A stretch of 64,000 nucleotides of DNA from positions 23,671 through 87,670 of the forward strand of contig CAWAVC010000046.1 in NCBI GenBank assembly GCA_963785325.1, in the 5' to 3' direction. Source of the stretch: an uncultured Bacteroidales bacterium (lineage in GTDB: Bacteria > Bacteroidota > Bacteroidia > Bacteroidales > FEN-979). The notes under the pieces are model-generated. The model ran no database searches and was not told the DNA's origin. It saw only the letters and a list, made by a program, of their open reading frames with translations. Made by a program: the position numbers and the translations under genes. Of this stretch, positions 2,883 through 59,303 are shown piece by piece; the first letter of the stretch is position 1; each line of letters begins with the position of its first letter.

Positions 2883-4331
2883 ATGGAATCTGACTCAAAT
2901 AAAATAATAGATTCGTTTACCCAGGGAGAATATAAATTCGGTTTTGTCACAGATATTGAAACCGATATGGCCCCAAAAGGGTTAAATGAAGATATCATCC
3001 GCTTGATTTCTGAAAAAAAGAAAGAACCGGAATTCATGCTTGAATTCCGCCTGAAAGCTTACAGGCACTGGCTTACCATGAAAATGCCCGGCTGGGCCAA
3101 TCTGAAAATTCCCCCTATCGATTTTCAGGATATCATCTATTTTGCGGCCCCGAAAAAGAAAAAACAACCGGCCGGTTTAGATGAAGTCGACCCTGAATTA
3201 CTGAATACCTTCAACAAGCTTGGTATCTCCCTTGAGGAACAAAAAAAGCTTAGCGGGGTTGCCGTGGATGCCGTGATGGACAGTATCTCAGTGAAGACTA
3301 CCTTTAGTGACACCCTTTCAAAGCTGGGTATTATATTTTGTTCTTTCAGTGAAGCTGTTCAGAAACATCCCGACCTAATAAAACAATACATGGGGTCGGT
3401 GGTTCCTTATACCGATAATTTTTTTGCCACGCTGAACTCCGCCGTATTCACTGACGGGTCATTCTGCTTTATCCCAAAAGGTGTTCGCTGTCCCGTTGAA
3501 CTTTCGACCTACTTCAGGATCAACGCTGCCAATACCGGCCAGTTTGAGAGAACCCTGATCGTTGCAGAGGAAGGGGCATATGTTAGCTACATGGAAGGCT
3601 GTACGGCTCCCCGGCGTGACGAGAACCAGCTTCATGCCGCAATTGTCGAGATTGTGGCCATGAAAGATGCCCAGGTGAAATATTCCACAGTTCAGAACTG
3701 GTATCCGGGGAATAAAAAAGGTGAAGGAGGAATCTTCAATTTTGTAACCAAGAGAGGCATCTGTAAAGGAAGCAACTCAAAGATCTCCTGGACTCAGGTG
3801 GAAACCGGTTCGGCCATTACTTGGAAGTATCCCGGTTGTATCCTTTTAGGCGATAACTCGGTAGGTGAATTTTATTCGGTAGCTGTTACCAATAACATGC
3901 AGCAGGCTGATACTGGGTCTAAAATGCAACACCTTGGTAAAAACACGAAGAGTACAATCATCTCTAAAGGAATCTCGGCAGGACACGGTAACAACAGTTA
4001 CAGAGGGTTGGTGAGGATAGCGAAGAATGCAGTAAACTCGCGGAACTATTCCCAATGCGACTCACTTCTTCTTGGTGATAAATGCGGAGCACATACGTTT
4101 CCTTATATGCAGGTGGAGAACAAATCATCCATTGTTGAACATGAAGCAACGACATCAAAAATTTCAGAGGACCAGCTTTTTTATTGTCAGCAGAGAGGTA
4201 TCGATATGGAAAATGCCATAGGTCTGATCGTAAATGGTTATGCTAAAGAAGTACTGAAACAACTTCCAATGGAATTTGCAGTGGAAGCACAGAAGCTGTT
4301 ATCCATCAGTTTAGAGGGGAGCGTAGGGTAG
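2883..4331 (+). CDS. sufB: Fe-S cluster assembly scaffold SufB
   Basis: 482 aa. Typical SufB sequence ([51 protein letters not shown]). First gene of a sufB-C-D-S-E series. Confidence 0.95.
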
Positions 4332-4429
4332 CTGGCGAATTAGCCAACTGGTAAACTGGTGAACTGGCGAATAAAAAAGATAATAATAAAATAAAATTCG
4401 TAATTCGTAATTTTTAATTCGTAATTAAT
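4332..4429. repeat. Intercistronic tandem arrays: five octamers (CTGGyrAA-like, 4332-4371) followed by five heptamers (AATTCGT/AATTTTT/AATTAAT, 4395-4429)
   Basis: Read directly: ctggcgaa|ttagccaa|ctggtaaa|ctggtgaa|ctggcgaa, then aattcgt|aattcgt|aattttt|aattcgt|aattaat. These fill the sufB stop to sufC start spacer. Confidence 0.8.
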
Positions 4430-4434
4430 TAAAC

Positions 4435-5187
4435 ATGTTGCTATCTATAAAGAATCTTCATGCTTCCATCAACGGGAAAGAGATACTCAGGGGGATCAAC
4501 CTTGAAGTGAACAAGGGAGAGGTACATGCAATCATGGGACCGAACGGGACAGGAAAAAGCACGTTAGCATCTGTCATTGCGGGAAGAGAAATGTTTGAAG
4601 TGACGGAAGGGGAGATCACCTTTAAGGGCAAGAATCTGCTGAAGCTTCCGATTGAGGATCGTGCCAGGGAAGGGATATTTATCGGTTTCCAGTACCCGGT
4701 TGAGATCCCTGGGGTCAGCATGACAAATTTTATGCGGACTGCCGTTAATGAACTCAGGAAGTACAAGGGATTGGATCCTGTTCCTGCTGTTGAATTCTTA
4801 AAGATGATGGAAGAAAACAAACGTTTAGTCGAGATCCAGTCGAGTCTGACGAACCGTTCGGTAAATGAGGGATTCTCGGGTGGGGAAAAGAAAAAGAACG
4901 AGATTTTCCAGATGGCTATGCTTGAACCTATCCTGGCTATTCTCGATGAAACAGATTCGGGGTTGGATATTGATGCTCTGCGTATAGTTGCCAATGGAGT
5001 AAATAAACTTCGTACCAAAGAGAATGCCTATGTGATCATCACTCATTATCAGCGTTTACTCGATTATATCGTTCCCGATTTTGTACATGTTCTTTTCCAA
5101 GGAAGAATTGTTAAATCAGGACATAAAGAGTTGGCATTTGAATTGGAAGAAAAAGGATATGACTGGATCAAGAAAGAATTTGAATAA
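4435..5187 (+). CDS. sufC: Fe-S cluster assembly ATPase SufC
   Basis: 250 aa. Walker A GPNGTGKST, signature-like FSGGEKKKNE, Walker B ILAILDETDSGLD. Confidence 0.95.
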   Translation: MLLSIKNLHASINGKEILRGINLEVNKGEVHAIMGPNGTGKSTLASVIAGREMFEVTEGEITFKGKNLLKLPIEDRAREGIFIGFQYPVEIPGVSMTNFMRTAVNELRKYKGLDPVPAVEFLKMMEENKRLVEIQSSLTNRSVNEGFSGGEKKKNEIFQMAMLEPILAILDETDSGLDIDALRIVANGVNKLRTKENAYVIITHYQRLLDYIVPDFVHVLFQGRIVKSGHKELAFELEEKGYDWIKKEFE

Positions 5188-5201
5188 AACCTTCCGGAAA
5201 T

Positions 5202-6623
5202 ATGACAGGTAAGATAACAACAACGCTCAAAGAGATTATCACAAAGGAAAGGATGATCACACTTTTTGAGAAGAACCGGAAGGAGATTTTCAAAAATGAT
5301 CCGGAACCGATAAGCCAACTCCGGGAAAAAGCATTTGATTCTTTTACTTTGCTTGGCCTTCCGAACAACCGGATAGAAGATTGGAGGAATACCGATCTGA
5401 AGGAATGGCTTGGGAAAGAATATGAATATTATTTTCATCCTTTACCCGGGATGGATGTCCACAAGATATTTCGTTGCAACATACCCCATCTCGACACGGC
5501 GATTATCGGCCAAATGAATGGGTGGTATGTTTCAAAAGATGTTCCATTGATCCGGTTAGGAAACGGGATGATCCTGGGAAGCCTTGCACAGGCATTCACA
5601 GAATACCCAGAGATCATGCAACAACATTATGGAAAATACGCTGGTACGGGTAAAAATGGTTTTACCGATCTGAATACTGCTTTTGCCCAAGATGGCATTT
5701 TTATCTATGTGCCTGATAATGTTCACAGTCCGAAACCCATCCAACTGATCAATGTGATCCAGCACGATGAGAACATTTTTCTACAATCAAGGAACCTGAT
5801 CCTTTTGGGTAAAAATGCTCAACTCTCAGTCGTCCATTGTGATGATTCATATAATCACCAGGCCAGCTTTTCAAATATCGTTACCGAGGTTCATCTTGAT
5901 GAAGGAGCCTTCATGGATCATTACAAACTCCAAAACCTTAACAATAACTCTACGTTGATCAACAATACAGTATTCCAGTTAGAGAAAAATGCTGAACTCG
6001 TTTCGAATTTTATTACCCTGAACGGAGGAATGCTTCGGAATGACACTCGTGTTCTTTTTAACGGGTCTCATGGAACTGCCAGTATAAATGGCTTGTACCT
6101 GATGGATCGCAAGCAGCATATTGACAACCATCTATATGTTGATCATGCATCTCCTTATTGTACCAGCATGGAAATGTTCAAAGGTATTTTGGATGAAAAT
6201 TCGTCCGGTGTTTTTAACGGACATGTCTATGTTCGTAAAGACGCTCAAAAGACAAATGCTTACCAAGGCAACCGAAACATTTTGCTGACAGATAACGCGA
6301 AAGTCAATTCAAAGCCTTTCCTTGAGATTTATGCAGATGATGTAAAATGCAGTCATGGATCCACAACCGGCCAGCTTAATACCGAATCAATGTTCTACCT
6401 GATGCAACGTGGGATTGGCCCTGAAAGCGCACGGATGCTGCTTTTATTTGCATTTGCAAATGAAATTGTAGGTAAAATATCCATTCCTGAACTTCGTTTC
6501 CGTATAGAAGACATGGTGAAAAAACGTCTCCAGGGGGAATTACAGATCTGCGAACAATGTGTGCTCCATTGCAGCACACCGGAACATCCGATGGAGTTTA
6601 ATATTGATATGAGTAAGGTATGA
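5202..6623 (+). CDS. sufD: Fe-S cluster assembly protein SufD
   Basis: 473-aa SufB/D-family paralog directly after sufC. The C-terminal FLEIYADDVKCSHGSTTGQL is typical of the family. Confidence 0.9.
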   Translation: MTGKITTTLKEIITKERMITLFEKNRKEIFKNDPEPISQLREKAFDSFTLLGLPNNRIEDWRNTDLKEWLGKEYEYYFHPLPGMDVHKIFRCNIPHLDTAIIGQMNGWYVSKDVPLIRLGNGMILGSLAQAFTEYPEIMQQHYGKYAGTGKNGFTDLNTAFAQDGIFIYVPDNVHSPKPIQLINVIQHDENIFLQSRNLILLGKNAQLSVVHCDDSYNHQASFSNIVTEVHLDEGAFMDHYKLQNLNNNSTLINNTVFQLEKNAELVSNFITLNGGMLRNDTRVLFNGSHGTASINGLYLMDRKQHIDNHLYVDHASPYCTSMEMFKGILDENSSGVFNGHVYVRKDAQKTNAYQGNRNILLTDNAKVNSKPFLEIYADDVKCSHGSTTGQLNTESMFYLMQRGIGPESARMLLLFAFANEIVGKISIPELRFRIEDMVKKRLQGELQICEQCVLHCSTPEHPMEFNIDMSKV

Positions 6624-6704
6624 GATCAGAGGTCAGAGAATTGAGGATGGAGGATAGAAGCTGGATAATGGATATTGAGAATTTCATAATTCGTAATTTT
6701 TGAT
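6621..6704. repeat. Degenerate heptamer tandem array (about 12 units, consensus RGAGRAT grading into TCGTAAT) filling the sufD-sufS spacer
   Basis: Parsed in register: tgagatc|agaggtc|agagaat|tgaggat|ggaggat|agaagct|ggataat|ggatatt|gagaatt|tcataat|tcgtaat|ttttgat. Column 7 is T in 10/12 units (C in the other 2), column 2 is G in 8/12, column 3 is A in 9/12. Confidence 0.7.
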
Positions 6705-7926
6705 GAGTAGTTTTCCCGTAAATAAAATCAGAGAGGATTTCCCAATCCTTCGGCAGAAGGTTTATAACCGACCACTGGTTTATTTAGACAATGCGGCTTC
6801 TACCCAAAAACCGGTTCAGGTCATCCGTGCAATTGCAGGTTATTATGAAACTGATAATTGCAACATCCACAGGAGTGTACATTTCCTTAGCCAAAGGGCT
6901 ACAGAAGTTTATGAAGATACAAGAAAAATGGTTCAGCGTTTCATCAATGCTGCATCTTCGAATGAAATCATCTTTACGAAAGGAGCTACTGAATCCATCA
7001 ACCTTGTCGCCTCTTCTTTCGGGCAAAAATATATTTCACGCGACGATGAAGTGCTGATTTCCATTATGGAACATCATTCGAATTTGGTTCCATGGCAACA
7101 GATGTGCATAGAAAGAGATGCGAAGGTCAAATATATTCCCATCCATGAGAACGGAGAACTCGATATAGATGCTTTTCACAAGCTCGTGAATGAAAAGACA
7201 AAACTGATTGCTATTACACATGTCTCCAACGTACTTGGAACCATTAACCCGATAAAAGAGATAATCGCTTATGCGCATTCCTTTAATATTCCGGTACTGG
7301 TGGATGGGGCACAGTCGATTTCACATCTGGGAGCCGATATGCATGACCTCGATTGTGATTTTTATTGTTTTTCCGGTCATAAAATGTATGCACCGATGGG
7401 GATCGGTGTTCTTTACGGGAAGGAAAAATTTCTGGAAGCTTTACCGCCTTACCAATCAGGAGGTGAAATGATCAAAACAGTTCGTACCGATCGTACGACA
7501 TTTAACGATTTGCCTTTTAAATTTGAAGCTGGAACACCCAATGTGGAAGGAGTCTACGGGTTGCATGCCGCGATTCTCTACCTGCAGAATCTTGGGATGG
7601 ATAATATCCGGAATTATGAACAAGAGATCCTTAATTATGCGACAGATAAACTCGCGGCCATGGGAGATATCCGTATTGTTGGCACGGCTAAGGAAAAGAT
7701 CAGTCTTATTTCTTTTCTTATAAATGGAATTCATCCGTATGATGCAGGCGTTATTATCGATAAAATGGGGATTGCGGTAAGAACCGGGCACCATTGTGCA
7801 ATGCCGTTGATTGAATGGTATAAAATCCCGGCAACGGTGAGAGCTTCATTTGCATTTTACAATACGGTAGAAGAGATAGATTTACTAATGGAAGCTATAA
7901 TTAAGGTAAAACAGATATTTGTATAA
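6703..7926 (+). CDS. sufS: Cysteine desulfurase SufS (class V aminotransferase fold)
   Basis: About 407 aa. PLP-lysine context FSGHKMYAPMGIGVLYG and catalytic-loop context RTGHHCAMPL. The ORF track starts at TTG 6700; the adjacent ATG 6703 is the likelier start. Confidence 0.93.
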   Translation: MSSFPVNKIREDFPILRQKVYNRPLVYLDNAASTQKPVQVIRAIAGYYETDNCNIHRSVHFLSQRATEVYEDTRKMVQRFINAASSNEIIFTKGATESINLVASSFGQKYISRDDEVLISIMEHHSNLVPWQQMCIERDAKVKYIPIHENGELDIDAFHKLVNEKTKLIAITHVSNVLGTINPIKEIIAYAHSFNIPVLVDGAQSISHLGADMHDLDCDFYCFSGHKMYAPMGIGVLYGKEKFLEALPPYQSGGEMIKTVRTDRTTFNDLPFKFEAGTPNVEGVYGLHAAILYLQNLGMDNIRNYEQEILNYATDKLAAMGDIRIVGTAKEKISLISFLINGIHPYDAGVIIDKMGIAVRTGHHCAMPLIEWYKIPATVRASFAFYNTVEEIDLLMEAIIKVKQIFV

Positions 7927-7954: not shown

Positions 7955-8386
7955 ATGACTATTTCAGATGTACAGGAAAAGATCATTTCCGAATTTTCAC
8001 TTTTTGCAGGATGGGAAGAAAAATACAGATATCTTGACGAAATGGCAAGATCTCTTCCAATCATTAATGAAAAGTACAAAACCGATCAATATGTAATATC
8101 CGGGTGCCAGTCGACAGTCTGGCTTTATGCGGAATACAGGGATGGGAGAATTTTCTTTTCTGCCGACAGCGATGCCATTATAACCAAAGGAATAGTCGGC
8201 CTGCTTATTCGCGTGTTATCCGGTCATACCCCTGACGAAATCCTGGAAGCCGATATGGATTTCATTGAGGAAATAGGATTGCGTGAGCATCTTTCGCCAA
8301 CACGGTCCAACGGGCTCACATCCATGATCAAGCAAATGAAACTTTACGCTCTCGCTTTCAAGGCAAAGTCAACTTCGGGGAATTGA
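7955..8386 (+). CDS. sufE: Sulfur acceptor SufE
   Basis: 143 aa with the Cys-bearing ISGCQSTVWL motif and the C-terminal SNGLTSMIKQMK typical of the SufE/CsdE family. Confidence 0.9.
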   Translation: MTISDVQEKIISEFSLFAGWEEKYRYLDEMARSLPIINEKYKTDQYVISGCQSTVWLYAEYRDGRIFFSADSDAIITKGIVGLLIRVLSGHTPDEILEADMDFIEEIGLREHLSPTRSNGLTSMIKQMKLYALAFKAKSTSGN

Positions 8387-15540: not shown

Positions 15541-16479
15541 ATGAAAACAAAAACTCTTTTCCGGTGGGGATTCCTGATGATCACTGTGATATTATTTATT
15601 TTAGTCAGCTGTTCAAAAGACAAAACTACAAACACAGCCACCACAAACACAGAATCGCTTCAGCAATTAACTATAGATGAGAACAATGTTGTGAGTGCTT
15701 CCAACCAGGCAGTGAATGATGTCGACAATGTTTTATCACCCGCAAAATTAAAATCTACTGAATCAGGGCCATGCAATACAACAGTAACTATAGGAGGTGT
15801 CGTAAATGACACCATTTCAATTGATATCTATTATCATGGTGCAGATTGCAACAACAAAGTTATTCGCAGTGGCCATGTTATTGTGAAGAAAAAATATCAG
15901 GAAGATTGGGGCCAGGCAGGAGCCACGGTCATCGTGACCATGAACAATTATACACGTACAAGAGTCTCTAACGGGAAATCTTTGACCATGAACGGATCAA
16001 AGCATTTTGAAAATGTCAGTGGCCACTACCTTTATGAACTTGGACTTGACAGTACCGTTACTTCAGTCGTACACAGGGTATGGGGTAATATTACAGTGAC
16101 TTTTGATGATAGTACCAACAAGGTTTGGTCACTAGCACGTCAGGATACTTACACTGGTTCATCGGTCGCGCGGGTGATGACTGAAGATGGATTCGGAACT
16201 GCCGAGGGGTACACCAACCTTACTGCATGGGGAATCAACAGGAATAGAGAACAGTTTTACTCAAGCATTATGCAATCAGTGGTTTACAAAGAGGTATGCG
16301 ACTTTGATCCCTGTTCCGGAATCGAAGTTCACCAAATCCCATCTAAATCTAAATCGGCTACTATTACCTTCGGGTACAACAGCAATAACAACCTTATAAC
16401 CAATGACGATTGTCCTACCCGTTACAGGGTCGATTGGGTAGTAGGAAATAAATATGGGACATTCTTTCTTCCGCTCTGA
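15541..16479 (+). CDS. Hypothetical lipoprotein
   Basis: 312 aa, lipobox ILVSCSKD, Thr/Asn-rich linker, no recognisable catalytic motif. Confidence 0.6.
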   Translation: MKTKTLFRWGFLMITVILFILVSCSKDKTTNTATTNTESLQQLTIDENNVVSASNQAVNDVDNVLSPAKLKSTESGPCNTTVTIGGVVNDTISIDIYYHGADCNNKVIRSGHVIVKKKYQEDWGQAGATVIVTMNNYTRTRVSNGKSLTMNGSKHFENVSGHYLYELGLDSTVTSVVHRVWGNITVTFDDSTNKVWSLARQDTYTGSSVARVMTEDGFGTAEGYTNLTAWGINRNREQFYSSIMQSVVYKEVCDFDPCSGIEVHQIPSKSKSATITFGYNSNNNLITNDDCPTRYRVDWVVGNKYGTFFLPL

Positions 16480-22331: not shown

Positions 22332-24098
22332 GTGGGTTATCAGGATCTCTTCCGCAGAAAATCGATAGAACATATCCTGAAGGATGCCGACCGGCATCTG
22401 GGAGAAACGGCCCGCATGAATCGTAGTCTGAATGTTCGTGACCTGACAGCCCTTGGTATTGCAGCGATAATCGGGGCTGGAATATTCAGCACAATTGGTA
22501 CAGCTGCAGCTACCGGTGGACCAGCAGTTTCCCTTCTTTTTATTTTTACGGCGGTTGCCTGTGGTTTTTCGGCCATGTGTTATGCCCATTTTGCTTCCCG
22601 GATACCTATCAGCGGAAGTGCATACACTTATGCTTATGCAAGTTTCGGTGAACTGGTGGCCTGGATTATAGGCTGGGACCTTATCATGGAATATGCCGTG
22701 GGAAACATTGCTGTCGCCATTTCATGGTCGGATTATTTCACCCATCTCCTGAATGGAATAGGGATCAATTTTCCAACCTACCTAAGTGTGGATTTCCTTA
22801 GTGCGGTCAGAGGCCATCATGCTGCAGTTGCCCAATTGGCCCACGGCATATCCTTTAGTACACTATCGGACAACTTAAGGGACGCTTACCTGGCCTGGAC
22901 ACAGGCTCCCCATATCGGGAACTTAAGGCTTATAGCCAATATACCTGCTTTTGGTATCGTGGTTTTCATCACTTACCTTGTTTACATTGGAATTTATGAA
23001 ACCAAAATGGCCAGTAATATCATGGTTTTGTTGAAAGTGGCTATCCTGCTGGTTGTCATTGGAGTAGGATCTTTCTATATCAATCCGAAGAACTGGAGTC
23101 CGTTTGCCCCGAACGGGATAGGAGGCGTACTGAAAGGAGTAGCAGGCGTTTTCTTTGCATATATCGGCTTTGATGCTATTTCTACTACGGCAGAAGAATG
23201 TAAAAACCCGCGCAGGGATCTTCCGCGCGCTATGATCTATGCACTGATCATCACGACTATACTTTACATCCTCATCAGTCTGGTGCTTACAGGTATGGTG
23301 AATTACAGCGGACTGGGAGTCGGTGATCCACTGGCTTATGCCTTTCAGAAGCTGCATCTTACTAAATTGTCGGGGATCATTGCCATCAGCGCCGTGATAG
23401 CAATGGCCAGCGTTTTGCTGGTATTTCAGGTCGGGCAACCCCGTATTTGGATGAGCATGAGCCGTGACGGTCTGTTGCCGAAAATCTTTTCCCGCTTGCA
23501 CCCAAAATTTAAAACACCGGCATTTTCTACAATAATAACCGGCATCATCGTTGCGATCCCCTCGCTTTTTTTAAATCTGACCGAAGTCACAGACCTGACC
23601 AGCATCGGAACCCTCTTTGCTTTTGTGCTTGTTTCCGGAGGCGTGCTGATCCTGGGTGAAGAAAAAAAACAGATACCCGCGAAGGAACGTAAGAAAGAAT
23701 TTAATATCCCCTATCTTAATTGTCGGTATTACTTGCCTCTTCTATGGGCATTTGTTTTTGTTGTGCTCTGGTATTGGAATCCACTGGAATTACAACAATT
23801 AATGCATAAGATTGTGGGTGACTCAAACCAACCAATTACCTCTTTCCTCTGGCATTTATTCACGACCGAATTTCCGGTTATCCTTTTTATTTTTTCAGCA
23901 ATTATTCTCACGGTCATTAGTATTTGGAAACAGCTGACACTAATTCCTGTCATCAGTCTCCTGATAAATTTCTACCTGATGGCCCAATTGGGGATAACCA
24001 ACTGGATGCGGTTTATAATATGGCTGGTTATCGGATTGGTCATATTTTTTACTTTTAGCAGGAAGCACAGCGTTATTGCAATGAAGAATGAAGAATGA
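22332..24098 (+). CDS. APC-superfamily amino acid permease (cationic amino acid transporter-like)
   Basis: DLTALGIAAIIGAGIFSTIG N-terminal signature and at least 12 hydrophobic segments. GTG 22332 (MGYQDLFRRKSIEHIL...) is preferred, because the track start at 22155 overlaps the convergent upstream gene. Confidence 0.85.
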   Translation: MGYQDLFRRKSIEHILKDADRHLGETARMNRSLNVRDLTALGIAAIIGAGIFSTIGTAAATGGPAVSLLFIFTAVACGFSAMCYAHFASRIPISGSAYTYAYASFGELVAWIIGWDLIMEYAVGNIAVAISWSDYFTHLLNGIGINFPTYLSVDFLSAVRGHHAAVAQLAHGISFSTLSDNLRDAYLAWTQAPHIGNLRLIANIPAFGIVVFITYLVYIGIYETKMASNIMVLLKVAILLVVIGVGSFYINPKNWSPFAPNGIGGVLKGVAGVFFAYIGFDAISTTAEECKNPRRDLPRAMIYALIITTILYILISLVLTGMVNYSGLGVGDPLAYAFQKLHLTKLSGIIAISAVIAMASVLLVFQVGQPRIWMSMSRDGLLPKIFSRLHPKFKTPAFSTIITGIIVAIPSLFLNLTEVTDLTSIGTLFAFVLVSGGVLILGEEKKQIPAKERKKEFNIPYLNCRYYLPLLWAFVFVVLWYWNPLELQQLMHKIVGDSNQPITSFLWHLFTTEFPVILFIFSAIILTVISIWKQLTLIPVISLLINFYLMAQLGITNWMRFIIWLVIGLVIFFTFSRKHSVIAMKNEE

Positions 24099-24122
24099 AG
24101 AATGAAGAATGAAAAATGAAGT
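24081..24122. repeat. Near-perfect heptamer tandem repeat: (ATGAAGA)x4, ATGAAAA, ATGAAGT
   Basis: Read directly. The array contains the permease stop codon (24096-98) and ends 6 nt before the ATG at 24129. Confidence 0.9.
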
Positions 24123-24128
24123 ATTACT

Positions 24129-24911
24129 ATGTCAGGAATTGAAATTGTTGTCCTGATTGGGGCGAGAATTTTTATCGGATTTATCAATACGCTCTCAGGA
24201 GGAGGATTCTGTTATCACTCTTTCCCTATTAATCCTTTTGGGATTACCTGCAAATATTGCCAATGGAACTAACCGTATCAGCATCTTTTTTCAGACTTTT
24301 TCATCGGTAGGCAGGTTTACACGTCAAAAGATGTTTACTTCGGTAAAGCCAGTCTGGCTGGGCATCCCGGCTACTGTTGGAGCAATTCTTGGAGCTTATC
24401 TGGCCATCGATGTTAATGTTAAAGTCATTGAAATTGCAATGTGCATTGCAATGGTTTTGATGGTTTTCTTCCTTTTTATAAACCGGATAAATGGCTCAAA
24501 GAAAATTCACAATTACTGAAATATCCGGTCACATGGTGGCAACTGGTCATCTTTTTTGTTGTTGGATTTTATGGCGGATTTATCCAGGTAGGGGTAGGCT
24601 ACTTTTTATTGATGTCGCTTGTTCTTGGAGTGGGGTATGATCTGGTTAAAGCCAACGCTATTAAAAACCTAATCGTATTCTTTTATGCAATTTTTGCCCT
24701 TCTTGTATTTATTATCAACGGACAGGTAAATTATCTTTATGGACTGATCCTATCTATAGGAAGTGTAATTGGTGCTTTGATTGCGTCATACCTGGCCTTG
24801 AGAAAAGGAGCCGGGTTCATCCGTGCAGTGATAATTCTTTCGGTTATCCTGACCATTCTGCAAATAACCGGTCTTGTTAACTTTACAGAGTTTTTTAAGA
24901 AAATAATGTAA
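24129..24911 (+). pseudogene. TauE/SafE-family (sulfite exporter-like) membrane protein, frame changes 0 to 1 to 0
   Basis: ATG 24129 gives MSGIEIVVLIGARIFIGFINTLSGGG (frame 0). Frame 1 (ORF 24157..24519) carries SVITLSLLILLGLPANIANGTNRI. Frame 0 resumes (ORF 24441..24911) with PDKWLKENSQLL...FYGGFIQVGVGYFLL. The breaks are near 24205-24212 and near 24465-24480 (a T5 run). Confidence 0.75.
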
Positions 24912-30365: not shown

Positions 30366-30382
30366 TAGAATCAAAATTAAAA

Positions 30383-30390
30383 CAAAATTA
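30383..30390 (-). promoter_or_regulatory. -7 promoter box (TAATTTTG on the minus strand) for the dCMP deaminase; a second copy lies at 30372-30379
   Basis: Minus-strand reading is cgTAATTTTGttTTAATTTTGattctaATG, which holds two exact TAnnTTTG matches. Confidence 0.4.
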
Positions 30391-30486
30391 CGCTATTGAA
30401 GGATTGAATCAGAGCAAATTGTTGAGATCTGTGAAAATATCTGGTGATCAGGAAATATAAAAACCAAGTGAATTATTCCGCAATTC

Positions 30487-31041
30487 TTAACAAACCTGGT
30501 CCAACACTTTTTCAAGTTGAATGACCAGGTTTTTTTTTGAACCATTATTCAGCAGAATAAAATCTGCCATTTTGATACATTTCCTAAGGTTCTGCTTATT
30601 TGGGTCGGTTGTGCTCAATTCTCTTTCTTCATTTTCCAGAAAGGTCTTACGTGAAATATAATCGGTTTCAGATTGGCGAAGGAGTATACGCTTATAGCGT
30701 AACTCCGGGTCAGCATCAACTGCGAGTAAAAAAAAATGACCTTTTATCCTGAGTGAATCAATCTCTCCGGGAGTACGGATGCTTTCGATCACACAGTTCT
30801 TTCCCGATGCCAGTGCCTCCTTGTAAAGCTGATCTGTTAAATAAGATGAGCCATGGCTGGCGCGAAGTTCATTTGCCAGGTTAAACATACTGTCACGGTT
30901 CTCAAGAAGACCTTTTTCCCTGATCTTTTCCAGAAGATAAGCCCGAACCGAATAATGAACAAACCCTTTTTCATCCACAAGGTACGCGACAATAGTACCT
31001 TTGCCTGCACCCAGGGTGCCTGTTATTCCTATAATGATCAT
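30487..31041 (-). CDS. Small P-loop nucleotide/nucleoside kinase-like protein (AAA/dephospho-CoA-kinase-like fold)
   Basis: 184 aa. Walker A GITGTLGAGKGT at the extreme N-terminus, as in small NMP kinases. Substrate unknown. Confidence 0.55.
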   Translation of the reverse strand: MIIIGITGTLGAGKGTIVAYLVDEKGFVHYSVRAYLLEKIREKGLLENRDSMFNLANELRASHGSSYLTDQLYKEALASGKNCVIESIRTPGEIDSLRIKGHFFLLAVDADPELRYKRILLRQSETDYISRKTFLENEERELSTTDPNKQNLRKCIKMADFILLNNGSKKNLVIQLEKVLDQVC

Positions 31042-34464: not shown

Positions 34465-34506
34465 AATTACGAATTACGAGTTATGAATTACGAATAAAAA
34501 ATATCG
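34465..34506. repeat. Heptamer tandem array AATTACG x3 plus variants (AGTTATG, AATAAAA, AATATCG). The unit is the reverse complement of the AATTCGT unit at 4395-4429.
   Basis: aattacg|aattacg|agttatg|aattacg|aataaaa|aatatcg, fading out by about 34534. It starts 2 nt after the upstream stop codon. Confidence 0.8.
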
Positions 34507-41141: not shown

Positions 41142-41377
41142 TCCTCAAAATTCTCATCGTTAAAAACGTCGTTGATTAGCAGATTATCATCGCTATTAGA
41201 ATGCATTTTTTGAAATGCCTTCTCCCAATTATAACGTGGTTTTGAGACCGGTTTAAGCACAATACTTCTCTTTTCAAGGATAACTTCTATCTTATCCTGT
41301 ATGTTGTATTTCTCCAATAATGATTTTGTCAACCTAATCCCTTTAGAATTCCCGATTTTTATTATCGATACTTGCAT
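41132..41377 (-). CDS. mazE: Type II antitoxin, AbrB/MazE/SpoVT-family
   Basis: 81 aa. The swapped-hairpin motif IIKIGNSKGIRLTKSLLEK is present, and the gene overlaps the toxin gene by 10 nt. Confidence 0.8.
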   Translation of the reverse strand: MQVSIIKIGNSKGIRLTKSLLEKYNIQDKIEVILEKRSIVLKPVSKPRYNWEKAFQKMHSNSDDNLLINDVFNDENFEEWK

Positions 41378-41392
41378 TGGATTGAATTTTAT

Positions 41393-41419
41393 AATTACAT
41401 TGTAATTACAAAATTACAA
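41393..41419. promoter_or_regulatory. Candidate mazEF operator: perfect palindrome AATTACAtTGTAATT (41393-41407) plus a third AATTACA copy, overlapping a minus-strand TAATTTTG -7 box (41409-41416)
   Basis: Read directly. It lies 16-42 nt upstream of the mazE ATG. AATTACA occurs at 41393, 41404 and 41413. Confidence 0.5.
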
Positions 41420-41610
41420 CTTTTATCATCAAAAATCATTCTTTTTTCAAATATTTATTACATTACATGGTTTTCTATACTCACAAATCCCAGAAACTTT
41501 TCACTCCTTTACCATAATTTTCTTTGTAACAAAGGTGTCACAATATTGAATGATTATGAAGAGTAATAAGTACTTTATTTTCATGACGATTTAACTATTT
41601 TGAAACATCA

Positions 41611-50248: not shown

Positions 50249-52021
50249 TCAGAAAAGAGAAGATGTTTTTTTCAGGATCCTTCGGTAAAATGAAAGAACA
50301 TTTGACCGCGAAACAAATCCGATATATTTTCCATTCCGTGTAACAGGAATATTCCATAGGTTTGAACTCTCCAGTTTTGTCATGACTGCTTCCATATTTT
50401 CAGCCGCATCGATCGAAAGGACATCCCTTGCAACGATATCCCCGATAGTCAGATCCTTATGAAGTTCCGGCTGGAATAATAGTTCCTTCACATTATCGAG
50501 CTGAATGATGCCAGATAAAATTATTGTCGGAATCCACAACAGGAAAAATATTTCGGTTACTATTTGTAAATGCTTCGATCAGTTTTCCGAATTTATCGGT
50601 AATCAGTAAGGGAATGAATTCTGTTTCTATAAGATCGTCAAGAAGGATCTGGCGGAGGACATTAGTGTCTTTATCACCGGTGAACACATGGCCTTTCTGA
50701 GCAAGTTTTTTCGTATAGATAGAATATGGTTCAAAATATCTGCTGATGAAATAAGAAAGTGCTGAAACTATCATAAGCGGAACAAACAGGACATATCCGC
50801 CTGTTATCTCTGCAATCAGAAAGATGGCAGTGAGCGGTGCATGAATTACACCGGCCATGATACCGGCCATTCCTACTGCCACAAAATTGTTGATATGAAG
50901 GTCACTGATACCTAAAGTATTTACCAGGAAGGCGAGTCCAAAACCAGCCATAGCACCTGTGAAGAGAGAAGGAGCGAAGATACCTCCATTACCCCCGGAA
51001 CCAAGGGTCAGGGCAGTAGCGATGGGCTTTACCAGGACAATTGCAAATGCAATAATGAGCAATTCCCATGGATTATCACGGAACCCGCTGAAAATACTGT
51101 TGTTCATTATATCCTGGAATGATCCTTTCAGGAGGGCTGTCACCGTGATATATCCTTCCCCAAACAGGGGAGGGAATAGAAAGATCAGACCGCATAACAG
51201 CAATCCTCCTAACAGTGCCTTGATATAGTTTTCCTTTGTCGTCTCCATTTTTTCCTCGATGAAAAGAGAAACCCTTGTCATATAAACTGAAAGAAGTCCG
51301 CAAATAACACCGAGAAGGATATAAAAGGGGATGGCATGGTAGTACCAGTCGTTGGTGATCAGGTAAAATAATTGTCCCCGGTATAAAAGCTTTGAAACAA
51401 TGATCGATGTAGCGGTGGATATCAGTAGGGGAATGAAAAGAGGGATGGTTATATCGGTGAGTAATACTTCGATAGCAAATATGACGCCGGCGATTGGACA
51501 GTTGCAAAACTGCTGCTATTCCTGAGGCAGCCCCACAAGCAAGAAGCAGCACCCTTTCCTTGTCGCCGAAACCAAGCTGCGTAGCGATGTTTGACCCGAT
51601 GGCTGAGCCTGTGATGACTATAGGAGCTTCCAAACCGGCGCTACCGCCAAAACCCACTGTTATTCCACTGGTAATAATGTGTGAGTACATCTTGTTTCTT
51701 TCCACCCGGCCCGACTTACGAACGATAGAAAAGAGGATGCTCCCCAGCCCTTTTTCCATTTTCCCTTTAAAAAAAATTTCTAACCACCATTACAGTCAGC
51801 AGAATACCTATGACCGGCAACAGAAAGTACCAGATACGATGTACTGAAACCTGGAAAAAATATTCAGAGATCTGTTGCATAAGGTGGACAAAAGTCTTCA
51901 GAACGATAGCGGATAATGCAGAAATAATCCCCACCAGTATGCTTGCCATTACAAGCATCGTGCGGCTCCCTAAATGGGACTTCTGCCAGACTGTTATAGG
52001 CCGGAGGAGTTTGTTAAACAC
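50249..52021 (-). pseudogene. ClC-family voltage-gated chloride channel / Cl-:H+ antiporter with a C-terminal CBS domain, broken by three frame changes
   Basis: Four ORF pieces (51767..52021, 51076..51759, 50493..51281, 50249..50539) tile one ClC: GFGGSAGLEAPIV (GxEGP-type), GSGGNGGIFAPSLF (GxFxP), and a CBS tail. The breaks are near 51766-51780 (A8/T8 run), 51500-51512 (GIAAV then NCPIAGVIFAIEVLL in another frame) and 50508-50520. Confidence 0.85.
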
Positions 52022-52119
52022 CTTGAGAAATAATAATTATCATCCGGCTCAAAGATAAAGAAAATGCAACGAAAAGGGAAAATAATCAATGAGTTTACAA
52101 CTTCGATCCGGCAGGCTAT

Positions 52120-54476: not shown

Positions 54477-56360
54477 ATGCGCTTTCGTTGTTTATATTTT
54501 ATCATTTTCGTTATTCACTATTTACTATTCACTTTTCATTGTATTGCCCAAGATCATCCGGCCACAAATGTTCCTGTGTTGCCATTCCAGACAAATGCCA
54601 CAGATAATAATGATGAACAGGTTGCCATGCAATTTTTCCAGAATCAAGAATATGCAAAGGCGGCAGAAGTCTATGAAAAGCTGTATGCCCTGAAACCCTC
54701 TTATTATCTCTATTCTTATTATTTTTTCAGCCTGGTTGAAATCGAAGATTTCGCTAGGGCTGAAAAACTGGTAAAAATTGCCCAAAAAAATGACAAGGAA
54801 GCCTTGAAGTACATGGTCGACCTGGGTTATATCTCATACCGGAAAGGTGATCGGGAAAAAGCAAAAAAAATGTACGATGAATCTATCAGGAAACTTGAAG
54901 CAAACCAGCAGCAGATTGCTGATCTGGCTAATGCCTTCATTAGCCGGAATGAAAATGAATATGCAGAAAAAGTTTATCTGAAAGGACGCCAGCTCCTGAA
55001 TAATTCTTATCCTTTCGGATTTGAATTGGCGATGATCTATGAAAGAACCGGAGAGTTCAAAAAAATGCTGGATGAGTATTTTAATCTGTTGGAAATTAAC
55101 AAAACGTATTTAACTACTATTGAGGACCGTTTGCAATATGATCTTGCTAATGATCCTGATAATTCAAAGAACGAAACTTTCCGGAAGTATCTGCTCGAAA
55201 AGTCACAGAAAGAACCCGATAAAATTTATTTTTCGGAAATGCTTTGGTGGTATTCCATTCAGCAAAAGGATTTTGATCTTGCATTGATCCAGGCCAGGTC
55301 GCTTGACCGGCGTTTAAGGGAGGATGGAGGAAGGGTTTTCCAACTGGCAAAAATGGCAATCTCAAATCAGGAATATGAATCCGCAATCGAGGCTTATAAA
55401 TATGTGATATTGAAAGGGAAAGAATATCCATTTTATGATGAAAGCCGAACGGAATTGCTCAACACTAGGTTCATCAAGTTGGTTTCACATCCCAGTCCAT
55501 CACTAAAATCCCTGGAGGAACTGGAAAAGGAGTTCGAAAAAGAAATCGCTCAGACTGATAACAGTGATCAATCTGTGATACTATCAAAAGATCTTGCTCA
55601 CCTGGATGCATTTTTTCTTGGGAAAAATGAATCAGCCATCGCGATGTTATCGACTATTGTAGAACGAAAAGATATCAACCTGAAATTAAAATCCCAAGTT
55701 AAGCTTGAACTAGCTGATATTTATCTATTTACAGGCAATGTGTGGGAGGCTACCTTATTATATCAGCAGGTCTACATGGATTTCAAAAACGATGAGATTG
55801 GGGAAGACGCCAAGTTTAAAAATGCAAAATTATCTTATTATATCGGTGAATTCAAATGGGCACAAGCACAGTTGGATATTTTGAAAGCCGCAACCTCGAA
55901 ACTTATTGCAAATGATGCAATGGCATTATCACTTCTTATCAGCGAACATTTTGATGCCGACAGTAACACAATCGCATTGGGATATTTTTCACATGCCGAT
56001 CTTCTTGAATACCGGAATAAAAATGAAGATGCCGTAAAAACCCTGGATTCGATTACACTGGCATTCAAGGATCATACGATATTTCCCCACATGTACCTGG
56101 AAAAGGCTAATATTCTGAAAAAAGAGGGAAAATTTCAGGAAGCAGATACCCTCCTGGGAACAATTGTCAAAACATATCCTGATGATGTGCTGGCCGACCA
56201 GGCTCTTTATATACGCGCTCATATGAATGAGGAAGATATTAAAGATACCTCGAAGGGAATGGAGTATTATGAATCGCTAATGAGTAAATATCCAGGTAGT
56301 ATCTATGTTCCTGAATCCCGTAAAAGATTCCGGTTGTTGAGGGGAGATAAAGCATTCTAA
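54477..56360 (+). CDS. Tetratricopeptide-repeat protein (secreted or periplasmic)
   Basis: 627 aa with an N-terminal hydrophobic signal and repeated 34-aa A/Y/L patterns (YAKAAEVYEKLY, YESAIEAYKYVI, ...). Confidence 0.7.
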   Translation: MRFRCLYFIIFVIHYLLFTFHCIAQDHPATNVPVLPFQTNATDNNDEQVAMQFFQNQEYAKAAEVYEKLYALKPSYYLYSYYFFSLVEIEDFARAEKLVKIAQKNDKEALKYMVDLGYISYRKGDREKAKKMYDESIRKLEANQQQIADLANAFISRNENEYAEKVYLKGRQLLNNSYPFGFELAMIYERTGEFKKMLDEYFNLLEINKTYLTTIEDRLQYDLANDPDNSKNETFRKYLLEKSQKEPDKIYFSEMLWWYSIQQKDFDLALIQARSLDRRLREDGGRVFQLAKMAISNQEYESAIEAYKYVILKGKEYPFYDESRTELLNTRFIKLVSHPSPSLKSLEELEKEFEKEIAQTDNSDQSVILSKDLAHLDAFFLGKNESAIAMLSTIVERKDINLKLKSQVKLELADIYLFTGNVWEATLLYQQVYMDFKNDEIGEDAKFKNAKLSYYIGEFKWAQAQLDILKAATSKLIANDAMALSLLISEHFDADSNTIALGYFSHADLLEYRNKNEDAVKTLDSITLAFKDHTIFPHMYLEKANILKKEGKFQEADTLLGTIVKTYPDDVLADQALYIRAHMNEEDIKDTSKGMEYYESLMSKYPGSIYVPESRKRFRLLRGDKAF

Positions 56361-56361
56361 G

Positions 56362-57128
56362 ATGATACAACCGAAAAAGCATCTGGGTCAGCATTTCCTA
56401 CATGATGAAAACATTGCCCGCAAGATTGTCGGTTACCTTTCCAAAGATATTATCAATGTTGTCGAAGTAGGTCCGGGTTTAGGGGTTCTGTCAAAATATC
56501 TTCTTGAAAATCCAGGATTGAATCCATATTTTTTTGAGATTGATAGTGAAGCAGTTTTGCATCTTCAAAAAGAGTATCCAGCCATTTCCGGAAGGTTGAT
56601 AGAGAAAGATTTCCTGCAGGTAGATCTTTCGATAATTCCTGTTCCATTTGCAGTTATCGGTAATTTTCCTTACAATATTTCCACTCAGATCCTATTCCGC
56701 GTGCTTGAGTATAGAAATTCGATTACAGAGGTGATTGGCATGTTCCAGAAAGAGGTTGCCGATAGAATTGCTTCGCCTCCGGGTTCGAAAAAGTATGGTA
56801 TCCTGAGTGTACTGCTGAAAGCGTGGTTCCATATAGAATATATGTTTACTGTAAATGAATCAGTGTTTTATCCTCCTCCCAAAATCAAATCAGCTGTTAT
56901 ACGTTTACAGAGAAACGAGGTTAAAAAACTGAATTGTGATGAGAAACTTTTTTTCGCACAGTAAAAACCGCTTTTAACCAACGCAGAAAGACATTAAGGA
57001 ATGCCTTGAAAGAGATGATTACAGTTGGAAAATTACCTTTAGACGAAATTCAATCATTGCTGGATAAACGTGCGGAACAATTAAGCGTGTCTGATTTTAT
57101 AGAGCTGACACGATACCTTGAAGGATAA
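56362..57128 (+). pseudogene. rsmA: 16S rRNA (adenine1518/1519-N6)-dimethyltransferase RsmA/KsgA, frame broken in a T7 run at 56948-56954
   Basis: KKHLGQHFLHD, VVEVGPGLGVLS and GNFPYNISTQILF motifs. ORF 56362..56964 ends EKLFFAQ*, while the next frame continues RTVKTAFNQRRKTLRNALKE...LSVSDFIELTRYLEG* with the stop at 57126-28. Confidence 0.88.
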
Positions 57129-57154
57129 GCTGAAGCGATTTCTGTTAAAATTCC

Positions 57155-57162
57155 TATTTTTG
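57155..57162 (+). promoter_or_regulatory. -7 promoter box (TATTTTTG) upstream of ATG 57181
   Basis: Exact TAnnTTTG match 18 nt upstream of ATG 57181. Confidence 0.4.
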
Positions 57163-57180
57163 CATTTCAACTTCTAAATC

Positions 57181-59303
57181 ATGGGTAAGAATTCATATAA
57201 TAAAAAAAGCAAGTCGTTTAAAAATTCGAAAACACGATCTTCTTCAAGTAACAAATCAAAAAATGTAGTGCGACCTTCGCTTGATAAAACCAGGATCCCC
57301 TCCTGACAAAGGGATTATAAAAGCAGATAATTCAAAAAAAGCAAACCGTTATTTTGTTCTCTTCTTTTTTGTATTTAGCGCTATTCTTTACGGGAATACG
57401 GTTCTTAATAAATGGGCGATAGATGATAATTTCGTTACCGGCCCACAGAATGAACTTGTGAAAAAAGGATTTGCAGCGATTCCCAAAATATTTTCCACTT
57501 TCTATGTGGATCTAAAAGGCAATGTGGGAAATCAGGAAACCGATTATCGTCCTATTGTCAAAATGACCTTTGCCTATTGAATACGGACTGTGGGGAGGAC
57601 AAAAAGCCGGTAGAAGCCACATTAACATCAATGTACTTCTCTATTTCTGCATTTTGTTTTGCTGTTTTTCATACTCAGGCGATTACTGAAGAAATCATAA
57701 CATCCTATTTCCTTTCCTGATCACACTGCTATTTATGGCACACCCAGTTCATACGGAAGTAGTTGCCAGTCTCTAAGAACCGGGACGAAATGTTGTCATT
57801 TCTTTGCGGACTCGGGGGACTGCATTTTATACTCCGGTATGCTGAAAGAAAAAAATCATTTATGTTTTTGCGACTCTGATCGTATTCTTCTTAGGTTACC
57901 TGTGCAAATCGTCCATATTGTCTTTTGTTGTAATATATCCCTTGGTGCTGTATTTCTTTACCGACATCAAACCAAAAAATTTCATCTGGATATTCGCAGC
58001 CGTACTATTTGTTGGATTAGTGGCCCAATTCCTACCACGGGTTTTTCTTCCGAAGGCAATCCATGTGAATTCCTTTAACGAGAACCCGTTATTCATGGAG
58101 AAGATCTTTTGGATACGTACAGGTACAGGGCTGATTACATTATTATTTTATTTAAGAATACTCATCTTTCCGCATCCTTTGCTTTATTATTATGGTTACA
58201 ATATGATTCCCATTACTGGTTGGGGGAATATCTGGGTGATACTCTCTTTTATTATATACCTCGGTATATTTATTTATGCCATTTTGAAATTTCGGGAAAA
58301 ACATATTCTTTCATTTGCCATTTTATATTATTTCATTGCCATTGCCATCTATACAAATGTGATAATACCGGTTCCGGGTATTGTTGCCGAACGGTTTGTG
58401 TTTAGTGCATCATTGGGGTTTATCATTGCACTGGTTTATTTTATTTTCCTGGCTTTCCATACAGAACCCAGGAGTCTCACCATTGAATTCAGTGAACGGG
58501 CAAAAATTATTGTGATTATTGCCTTACTTCTGATTCCCTGTACAGCCATGACCATTAGGAGGAACCGTGATTGGCGGAATTTGCGTGATCTTTATACTAC
58601 GGATATAAAGTATCTGGTTAAATCATTTAAAGCCAATACTGAATATGCAGAATTCCTGTCAGGGATGGTCTATAAGGATCCTAATTATCAGCAAAATGGA
58701 ACAGTCAATGAAAGATTGCAGAAAATGATTATTACACATTTCCGCAGGGCATTGAAGATATATCCTAATGATTATGTCACTCTGAACGATCTTGCAACAG
58801 TTTACATTAATTTTTCACACAAACCTGATTCAGCACTCGTTTTTCTGAAGAACGCAATTAATTTACAGCCTGAACTTCAACCTGCCTGGGTAAACATGGC
58901 CATGGCATACCAAAAGAAAAACAAGATCGACAGCGCCATCATTTGTTACCAGAAGGTTCTACAAATCAATCCGAAAGCATTGACTGCTTATTTTAAGATG
59001 GCAAATTTTTACTTTGAAAAGGGTGAAGTTGGAAGGGCTATGAATATGAATGAGGCTCTCATGAGAAAGTATCCCGACCTGGATGTTCCATATTTTAACA
59101 TTGGATATTATTTTATTATGCAGGGAGATACCACAAATGCTATAAAGTACTGGGAACAAGCTGCTCAACGAAAAGCCACTTATGAAGTTTGTACAGACCT
59201 GAGTATAATGTACAAAGCAAAAGGAGATATGGAAAGAGCAAGATACTATTATGGACTTGCAGAAGATGCCCAACAAAGGCGGAATGCAGAAAGAAATCCT
59301 TGA
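57181..59303 (+). pseudogene. TMTC/DUF1736-like polytopic membrane protein with C-terminal TPR repeats (putative glycosyltransferase). The N-terminal third is broken by at least 5 frame changes.
   Basis: Fragments in three frames can be chained: ...ANRYFVLFFFVFSAILYGNTVLNKWAIDDNFV...VKMTFA / IEYGLWGGQKAGRSHINNVLLY / LLFFILRRLLKKS / NILFPFLITLLFMAHPVHTEVVASL / NRDEMLSFLCGLGGLHFILRYAERKKSFMF / ATLIVFFLGYLCKSSILSFVVIYPLV. These run into the intact ORF 57918..59303, which holds TM segments and then TPRs. HPVHTE is the DUF1736 hallmark. Confidence 0.7.

Follow-up and report, generated by a model that had tools for sequence, protein, structure and literature searches.

The spacers between sufB and sufC and between sufD and sufS, in a 64,000-nucleotide stretch of DNA from an uncultured Bacteroidales bacterium (GenBank assembly GCA_963785325.1, contig CAWAVC010000046.1, positions 23,671 to 87,670; hereafter the window), are built largely from tandem arrays of 7- and 8-base units, and further arrays of this kind lie at 24080 and 34465. 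These arrays are probably intergenic long simple sequence repeats (LSSR), i.e. the Bacteroidales counterpart of the arrays of Nostoc and Calothrix, Xanthomonas and Beggiatoaceae, driven by slippage, purged from coding DNA and filtered by orientation. Their units repeat in tandem, are largely kept out of genes, are gained and lost in whole-unit steps among relatives and follow a rule of orientation with respect to the neighbouring genes.

Comparisons were made with 13 related loci (L001-L013) obtained from a SufD scan of species-representative genomes (L007 coming from OY759717.1 and L002 from CAWDBP010000007.1). All 13 are from uncultured Bacteroidales, Prolixibacteraceae or Bacteroidota metagenome-assembled genomes (MAGs), with SufD proteins 48-90% identical.

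Structure of the arrays in the window

The arrays, those of the suf spacers being delimited by inspection of the sequence, are as follows.

4332-4371, + strand: stop-proximal array of the sufB-sufC spacer, five octamers CTGGCGAA TTAGCCAA CTGGTAAA CTGGTGAA CTGGCGAA
4372-4394, + strand: A-rich linker TAAAAAAGATAATAATAAAATAA, 23 nt, between octamers and heptamers
4395-4429, + strand: start-proximal heptamers AATTCGT AATTCGT AATTTTT AATTCGT AATTAAT, ending 5 nt before the sufC ATG (4435)
6624-6679, + strand: stop-proximal part of the sufD-sufS array, GATCAGA GGTCAGA GAATTGA GGATGGA GGATAGA AGCTGGA TAATGGA TATTGAG
6680-6700, + strand: start-proximal part of the sufD-sufS array, AATTTCA TAATTCG TAATTTT, AT-rich, ending 2 nt before the sufS ATG (6703)
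24080-24121, + strand: AATGAAG x6 array (Tandem Repeats Finder period 7, 6.0 copies, 94% matches, score 77)
34465-34495, + strand: AATTACG x4.4 array (Tandem Repeats Finder period 7, score 48)

The sufB-sufC spacer (4332-4434, 103 nt) has three parts, i.e. octamers, an A-rich linker and heptamers, and the TAG stop of sufB (4329-4331) directly abuts the first octamer. The octamer block exhibited a lag-8 identity of 0.72 (z 6.4, P < 0.0005 against shuffles) and was called as period 8 at 4346-4367 by Tandem Repeats Finder; its units belong to an NNGGYRAA family that was also found in L004, L008, L011 and L013. The heptamer block was called with period 7, 4.6 copies and a score of 50, and had a lag-7 identity of 0.77 (z 5.2, P < 0.0005 against shuffles). 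A weak period-5 AATAA signal (Tandem Repeats Finder score 33) was detected in the linker. A first-pass annotation of this DNA had given the octamers exactly as they read here, together with about five AATTCGT-type heptamers, and these arrays were confirmed; the 23-nt linker was not mentioned in it.

Eleven heptamers in one register make up the sufD-sufS spacer (6624-6702, 79 nt), starting directly behind the TGA and stopping 2 nt short of the ATG; the strict register from stop to start that had been claimed for this spacer was found, but with 11 units rather than 12. The first eight heptamers are purine-rich and of NNNNNGA type. The last three are a decayed AATTCGT-type array that shares their register, and TCGTAA-type arrays occupy the equivalent position before sufS in L003, L004 and L005. 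The GGTCAGA unit reappears in reversed form, as TCTGACC/TCTGACT arrays, at L004:13370 and L005:13263. Identity over 6624-6702 was 0.62 at lag 7 (z 6.3) and 0.54 at lag 14 (z 4.5), with |z| < 2 at the remaining lags when compared to shuffles. This is an old, degenerate array, too degenerate for detection by Tandem Repeats Finder at a score of 30. The sufC-sufD spacer is only 14 nt long and has no array.

The AATGAAG array at 24080-24121 (lag-7 identity 0.82, z 7.0) overlaps the end of an amino-acid permease gene (Pfam), whose last five sense codons and TGA stop (24096-24098) it provides; 7 nt separate it from the ATG (24129) of the frameshifted TauE-family gene downstream. The AATTACG array at 34465-34495 (lag-7 identity 0.75, z 5.6) begins 2 nt past the TAA of a DUF6029 gene, and an Omp28-family gene follows it after 50 nt; its unit is the AATTCGT register in reverse complement. 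The suf units had been said to recur at 24081 and 34465, which is correct for the second site only in the sense of this reverse complement and incorrect for the first, AATGAAG being a different, purine-rich unit. Three or four unit families coexist in the window alone.

Periodicity across the window was scanned using a 21-nt window with at least 17 matches for periods of 4 to 12. Four period-7 segments and one period-8 segment were found, with approximately none in shuffled sequence, and no segments were found at periods 4-6 or 9-12. Tandem Repeats Finder placed arrays at 4346, 4395, 24080 and 34465. Taken jointly, the arrays had lag-7/lag-8 identities of 0.62 to 0.82 with z of 5.2 to 7.0. It is extremely improbable that this periodicity arose by chance in AT-rich, low-complexity spacers or as an assembly artefact. 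The failure of Tandem Repeats Finder to register the sufD-sufS array and signs of indel errors or a pseudogene in the window (i.e. the TauE gene extending over three frames) speak for such a reading, but z values of 5 to 7 were reached at lags 7 or 8 only (P < 0.0005), shuffles lacked comparable segments, and the independent assemblies of the 13 relatives have arrays at the same junctions. The lag statistics, shuffles and spacers of relatives together refute it, and the earlier claim that the period-7/8 spacer arrays exceed chance was borne out.

The suf gene calls of the first-pass annotation were upheld by Pfam, with all five genes on the + strand; these context genes are listed below.

2883-4331, + strand: sufB, Pfam SUFBD_core (3.8e-78)
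4435-5187, + strand: sufC, Pfam ABC_tran
5202-6623, + strand: sufD, Pfam SufBD_N and SUFBD_core, stop TGA at 6621-6623
6703-7926, + strand: sufS, Pfam Aminotran_5 (2.7e-144)
7955-8386, + strand: sufE, Pfam

An upstream open reading frame (ORF) of 18 codons (MEDRSWIMDIENFIIRNF) lies within the sufD-sufS array at 6647-6703. Its TGA overlaps the sufS ATG as TGATG, a pattern typical of termination-reinitiation coupling; the ORF may be a chance product of a heptamer array with ATG in all three frames.

Distribution of arrays among genes and spacers

The genomic distribution was examined using Tandem Repeats Finder in 293 kb, comprising the window and the related loci; for the densities, ORFs were called after the arrays had been masked. 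Genes were called crudely, as the longest ORFs with 100 codons or more, and since every related locus surrounds the same operon, orthologous spacers do not count as independent samples. There were 167 non-redundant arrays, with 57 of period 7, 25 of period 8 and 23 of period 14, 16, 21 or 24; other periods were few and were mainly two-copy matches in coding DNA. Period-7/8 arrays numbered 90 in intergenic as compared to 15 in coding DNA (2.71 and 0.058 per kb), so that they were not equally frequent inside genes but 47-fold rarer there. Similar densities were observed for 311 further loci from metagenome and viral contigs (1.8-3.1 per kb intergenic, 0.06-0.11 per kb coding). Arrays account for 6-41% of intergenic bases in most relatives, with the 41% reached in L011; the share is only 2.9% for the window, 2.0% for L002 and 1.5% for L012.

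A preference for same-strand stop-to-start spacers, as the first-pass annotation had proposed, was not observed. Densities were 3.1 per kb in co-directional spacers (53 arrays in 17.0 kb), 2.4 per kb in divergent spacers (18 arrays in 7.5 kb) and 2.5 per kb in convergent spacers (10 arrays in 3.95 kb), with no significant difference among these spacer types (chi-square of approximately 1.1). The arrays are a clade-wide property of intergenic DNA in every orientation.

Inheritance and turnover among relatives

The sufB-sufC, sufD-sufS and often the sufS-sufE spacers of the relatives are in nearly all cases filled with period-7/8 arrays, usually with other units than those of the window. Examples include TGTGGTAA x11 followed by TTTTCAA x4 in L013, ATGTACG x14 in L011, AAGTGAG x7 in L007, CTAATAC x4 in L002, and GTGGTGAA x4 followed by CGTAAAT x6 in L004. 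In L012, which is the outgroup and the most distant of the loci, the suf spacers are compact and free of arrays, and the sufD-sufS spacers of L006 and L007 are short with little or no array.

Changes in copy number were evident among orthologous spacers. For L009 and L010, whose sufD genes are 93% identical, the sufB-sufC spacers align over a unique centre that is conserved, and their indels, of 29 and 17 nt, fall only within the arrays; this confinement supports the earlier suggestion of slippage-generated spacers. Alignment showed the AATTCGT array before sufC to be homologous in the window, L006 and L002, with unit-level changes. In L003 and L004 (sufD 89% identical), quite different units occupy the sufD-sufS spacer. 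The comparison of orthologous spacers that had been proposed yielded unit-wise changes among relatives, at distances beyond the same-species level: exact-protein look-ups of the window SufB, SufC and SufE for same-species strains gave no match, and the best SufD homologue is 89% identical. The arrays are inherited, slip, decay and get replaced.

The sufD-sufS junction also takes insertions of genes, i.e. approximately 1.1 kb in L008 (2344-3481) and approximately 2.3 kb in L013 (11401-13759), and in another relative (the P0093 locus) a MutS-like gene follows sufD in place of sufS. The L011 contig ends within an ATCGTAC x37 array (16096-16354), and several metagenome matches to (AATTCGT)n lie at contig ends (e.g. 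L052, L067, L017 and L028). Long arrays seem to break short-read assemblies, and the lengths and numbers of arrays in MAGs are probably underestimated.

Orientation of arrays relative to genes

Array composition depended on position between genes. In the suf clade the purine content of arrays drops along the spacer (Spearman r = -0.53, P = 4e-7, n = 81), with the same sign in ++, divergent and convergent spacers; the gradient was not seen in -- spacers, which held only 8 arrays, too few to judge. Array-free spacers exhibited neither a purine gradient nor such a skew. In all five locus sets, arrays within 30 nt past a stop codon are purine-rich with G exceeding C in the sense strand, and those within 30 nt before a start codon are purine-poor with C exceeding G. 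When restricted to high-scoring, masked arrays and with bait units excluded, the independent loci gave ratios of 72:29 for G>C in stop-proximal arrays (P = 2e-5) and 38:13 for C>G in start-proximal arrays (P = 6e-4); under the same restriction the suf clade gave 11:4 and 7:1, respectively. The window fits this rule: G exceeds C in the octamers that follow sufB, and the array behind sufD is rich in purines. In metagenomes, AATTACG-sense arrays lie a median of 3 nt past stops and AATTCGT-sense arrays lie nearer to starts, and the geometry of the window arrays at 34465 and 4395 matches this pattern exactly. AT-rich units in unrelated sequences from metagenomes and viruses obey the rule as well, and its validity for such non-quadruplex units argues against a quadruplex-specific explanation.

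Three simple causes of the polarity were considered, and none accounts for it on its own. Stop-codon content was not biased (stop-proximal arrays, 87 sense and 99 antisense). Avoidance of upstream AUG as the sole cause fits the ATG counts in start-proximal arrays (8:23), but the enrichment after stops (45:18) runs in the opposite direction, leaving this as a partial cause only. An artefact of ORF calling does not explain the effect, which persists with masked high-scoring arrays and exclusion of bait units.

Another proposal for the start-proximal arrays (AATTCGT before sufC, TCRTAAT before sufS) is that they are selected as unstructured, G-poor, AU-rich landing pads for initiation on the following cistron, e.g. 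via protein S1, in a host that lacks SD pairing (SD, Shine-Dalgarno). We regard this as unlikely. It is consistent with the C>G, purine-poor composition of these arrays, with the depletion of in-sense ATG, with the 0 to 20 nt separating the arrays from the start codon and with the lack of folding beyond shuffles in the window spacers that carry them. Use of SD-like motifs is also low in the clade (0.23 by a lenient measure), and the same idea was put forward by MacGregor for TAACTGA repeats (PMC4679880). However, convergent spacers, which have no start codon, are equally dense in arrays; half of the arrays are stop-proximal and have the opposite composition; and the array-poor junctions of L012, L006 and L007 indicate that arrays are dispensable. 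A tandem, non-self-complementary unit is moreover unstructured by construction, so that low structure is no sign of selection, and Xanthomonas uses SD sites yet has the same polarity (PMC4692102). The initiation platform suggested in the first-pass annotation thus suits the start-proximal arrays, but neither the post-stop and convergent arrays nor the junctions of the array-poor relatives.

RNA structure of array spacers

Folding of 20 array spacers was compared to dinucleotide shuffles. The four window array spacers folded no better than shuffles, with z of -0.96 and -0.16 for the two suf spacers, +2.1 for 24060-24135 and +1.0 for the remaining one, and several spacers folded worse (e.g. L013 at +3.4, and 24060-24135). 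Strong folds were detected in relatives for the L009 sufB-sufC (z -5.7), L011 sufD-sufS (z -9.7) and L011 sufB-sufC (z -3.7) spacers. At L009:9055-9225, L010:9022-9212 and L011:11408-11530, the stop-proximal array of a spacer is the exact reverse complement of the start-proximal one (TAGCGAAA / TTTCGCTA; TGTACGA / TCGTACA), and such pairs make long imperfect hairpins in L009 (z -5.7) and L011 (z -9.7), with a z of only -1.8 in L010. No terminator-like sites were predicted in the window spacers, promoter-like matches in spacers were at chance level only, and Rfam covariance models at the gathering score gave no matches in the whole window, which also contains no tRNA or tmRNA.

These folds bear on the possibility of an intercistronic hairpin, formed by a 5' array rich in purines and a 3' array rich in pyrimidines, that stabilises or terminates transcripts. 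The reverse-complement arrays of L009 and L011, the frequency of inverted heptamer-array pairs in Xanthomonas (PMC4692102) and the fact that a purine-then-pyrimidine arrangement reads identically on both strands are in its favour. It is nevertheless very unlikely: the window suf spacers and several others do not fold beyond shuffles, terminator-like sites are lacking in the window, and the periods of 8 and 7 in the two window arrays preclude pairing in register. The hairpin model was accordingly rejected for the window and holds in few relatives only.

Unit vocabulary

Identical units were shared by 6.5% of pairs across different spacers of one genome and by 1.7% of pairs between genomes, as compared to 0.06% for random units of the same composition. 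At least 10 unit families coexist in the clade. Recurrent heptamer families are AATTCGT, ACCTAAT/CTAATAC, AATGAAG, GATGTAC and CGTGAAC, together with TAGCGAAA, which recurs at unrelated loci and in different genomes; recurrent NNGGYRAA octamers are CTGGCGAA, CTGGTGAA, GTGGTGAA, CTGGTAAA and CGGGTGAA. In RNA letters, array units read, for instance, AAUUCGU and CUGGUGAA.

At least 120 metagenome contigs and 57 viral contigs contained the triplet (AATTCGT)3; among viral contigs, permuted units of the same composition gave 18 and 9 and (TAACTGA)3 gave 107. The taxonomy of the metagenomic AATTCGT loci was approximated only, by SD-like motif use. Whatever their unit, heptamer arrays are thus common in the DNA of microbes and viruses, with certain units favoured over others. 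Exact heptamer triplets, (AATTCGT)3 included, also turn up in contigs with a giant-virus MAG label and in numerous further viral contigs (IMG/VR GVMAG contigs L137, L160 and L172; also L194, L198, L209 and L297); either arrays also arise in viral genomes or the contigs are misassigned cellular DNA.

A limited vocabulary could indicate that units are words for a trans-acting factor (an RNA-binding protein, an RNase or a DNA-binding protein), with the arrays as candidate multimerised sites that punctuate transcripts, e.g. for processing or segment stability. The recurrence of units across unrelated loci and genomes, the non-random orientation relative to genes and the over-representation of (AATTCGT)3 relative to permuted controls would fit such sites. 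Hfq and CsrA are absent from Bacteroidota, which depend on RRM-type proteins that bind single-stranded RNA (PMC11697453, PMC13370968); this names a candidate class only, and no motif linking RbpB-type RNA-binding proteins to the units was found in the literature. Several observations make this reading quite unlikely. Units at the same junction differ between the close relatives L003 and L004, unlike a fixed site; the vocabulary is large and its words grade continuously; ectopic recombination between arrays could also give rise to shared units; and no Rfam family matched in the window.

Relation to known repeat systems

Intergenic heptamer arrays have been known since 1990 and are over-represented in scattered bacterial lineages, their function never having been explained. 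The short tandemly repeated repetitive (STRR) sequences comprise several families of tandem heptamers in non-coding DNA, including operon spacers, which vary between close relatives and whose function is unknown; STRR copy numbers per genome have been established genome-wide. The repetitive extragenic palindromic (REP) sequences, bacterial interspersed mosaic elements (BIME) and REPINs of Proteobacteria are imperfect palindromes of 20 to 40 nt, occurring as single or paired dispersed copies that are mobilised by RAYT transposases. STRR heptamers of Calothrix and Anabaena are said to have been described by Mazel et al. in 1990 with units CCCCAGT, TTGGTCA and CAACAGT.

The likeness to cyanobacterial heptamer arrays that the first-pass annotation had drawn is apt, as tandem heptamers filling variable spacers, operon spacers included, are a feature of STRR and of the Bacteroidales arrays alike. 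The window units differ from those reported for STRR and the phylum is another one, the relatives being Bacteroidales/Prolixibacteraceae MAGs. REP/BIME share with the present arrays a short, intergenic nature, a frequent location within operons and, as in L009 and L011, the occasional formation of hairpins by inverted pairs; the window arrays differ in consisting of head-to-tail 7- to 8-nt units without hairpins.

Intergenic heptamers were described by Rehm et al. 2015 (PMC4692102) in Xanthomonas (GGGAATC) and Nostoc PCC 7120 (GGGGAYT). Their G-rich strand is sense within 50 bp of a stop codon, which the arrays often directly follow or overlap, and antisense within 50 bp upstream of an ORF, with inverted pairs frequent within a spacer. 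Arrays between the same genes vary extensively in length and sequence among close species and are transcribed; the neighbouring genes are of no particular functional class, and the function is unknown (PMC4692102). The Bacteroidales arrays match this polarity. In contrast to Xanthomonas and Nostoc, the window units are AT-rich, with no GGG tract and no quadruplex potential, many units rather than one dominant unit occur per genome, octamers are common, divergent spacers are not depleted in the present sample, and the host is an uncultured Bacteroidales.

No equivalent had been thought to be described for Bacteroidota, a statement contradicted by MacGregor 2015 (PMC4679880), who reports TAACTGA direct repeats in marine Beggiatoaceae, some Cyanobacteria and five Bacteroidetes (Flexibacter litoralis, Paludibacter, Gramella forsetii, Aequorivita and Elizabethkingia), in which other heptamer repeats occupy the same spacers. 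TAACTGA arrays often end a few bases before a start codon, with reversed copies just after stops; close relatives keep the gene neighbourhood without the repeats, and the arrays break assemblies. Ribosomal protein S1, cold-shock proteins or CsrA were suggested as readers, and a variant of RNA polymerase beta-prime is also discussed (PMC4679880). As intergenic heptamer direct repeats near starts, these repeats resemble the Bacteroidales arrays, whose unit vocabulary is different and broader; a TAACTGA doublet is absent from the window, even with one mismatch allowed.

The survey by Mrazek, Guo and Shah 2007, as relayed in PMC4679880 and PMC4692102, defines LSSR as arrays of 5- to 11-nt units that are longer than expected by chance and sporadic in taxonomy. 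According to these accounts, heptanucleotides are the commonest class in many bacteria, polymerase slippage was proposed as their source, and coding DNA excludes units whose length is not a multiple of three. The Bacteroidales arrays exhibit tandem copies beyond chance, exclusion from coding DNA and whole-unit changes between relatives; the parts of the survey so relayed do not deal with this lineage, with vocabularies of shared units or with how arrays are oriented towards genes.

Proposed origin and significance of the arrays

Loops of 7-8 bases escape MutS-type mismatch repair. In the LSSR interpretation, arrays would be born and remodelled by replication slippage or unequal recombination and would survive only where a step of 7 or 8 bases shifts no reading frame. 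The window arrays would then be passive, unstructured filler within the polycistronic suf mRNA, extending the two spacers to 103 and 79 nt. A further filter would act on orientation, and selection at the level of the transcript is its most plausible form; the leader preceding the next cistron, for instance, might be kept G-poor, AUG-poor and unfolded in a host that does not use SD sites.

Several observations weigh against slippage as the whole explanation. Pure neutral slippage predicts neither the orientation rule nor the shared units, and (AATTCGT)3 was 3- to 6-fold commoner than permuted controls in viral contigs. The difference in units between L003 and L004 resembles a replacement more than a gradual drift. 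Together, the orientation rule and the shared vocabulary point to a filter beyond slippage; neutral slippage leaves both unexplained, and both would fit a functional reading, either as an initiation platform in the case of start-proximal arrays or as sites for a trans-acting factor.

The most elaborate of the functional readings is a two-part punctuation of polycistronic mRNAs in a host without SD sites, in which purine-rich octamers of NNGGYRAA type after stops and G-poor heptamers (AATTCGT, ACCTAAT, ATCGTAA) before starts would each be read by a trans-acting factor or the ribosome. We consider this decidedly improbable. If it were true, the arrays might serve, for example, ribosome hand-over or standby binding, and the orientation rule would stem from an RNA-level role common to bacterial heptamer arrays in general and independent of quadruplexes.

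The finding is descriptive, and the function of the arrays stays at the level of proposals. The anatomy of such arrays has already been published; new here are the AT-rich, non-quadruplex units, the many unit families and the frequent octamers, in an uncultured Bacteroidales clade that has arrays at the same operon junctions across family-level divergence whilst the unit sequence turns over. The orientation rule (sense G>C after stops, C>G before starts) supplies a testable constraint. In practical terms, the arrays explain contig breaks and mis-called gene ends or starts in such MAGs, e.g. the permease stop at 24096, which the array supplies, and ORFs running on into arrays.

Other observations on reading frames in the window

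The strand reading AATTCGT (as at 4395-4429) has TAA in all three frames within 21 nt. The strand reading AATTACG (as at 34465-34495) is open in all three frames and would encode TNYELRI repeats; ORF callers will therefore extend genes into AATTACG-sense arrays and misplace gene ends.

The TauE/SafE-family gene that follows the AATGAAG array (24129-24911, ATG at 24129) is split over three frames, with ORF 24157-24519 corresponding to positions 20-112 of the TauE profile and ORF 24441-24911 to positions 121-236. This gene is either a pseudogene or the product of assembly indel errors. Four long stretches counted as intergenic (30375-30852, 41142-41610, 51282-52119 and 56965-57917) look like coding DNA but contain no long ORF. 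Additional broken genes or indel errors may account for them, and they inflate the apparent intergenic fraction of the window.

Weak period-7 stretches occur in apparent coding sequence at 54511-54540 (TATTCAC x3.9), in a hydrophobic, signal-peptide-like N-terminus, and at 63946-63973 (CACGTCA x4), in a short-chain dehydrogenase-like ORF starting at 63784. Both were flagged by Tandem Repeats Finder and the periodicity scan but are weak and coding-looking; they were not accepted as arrays of the intergenic kind and were left out of the counts. CGCGTCA arrays are intergenic in L005 and L006.

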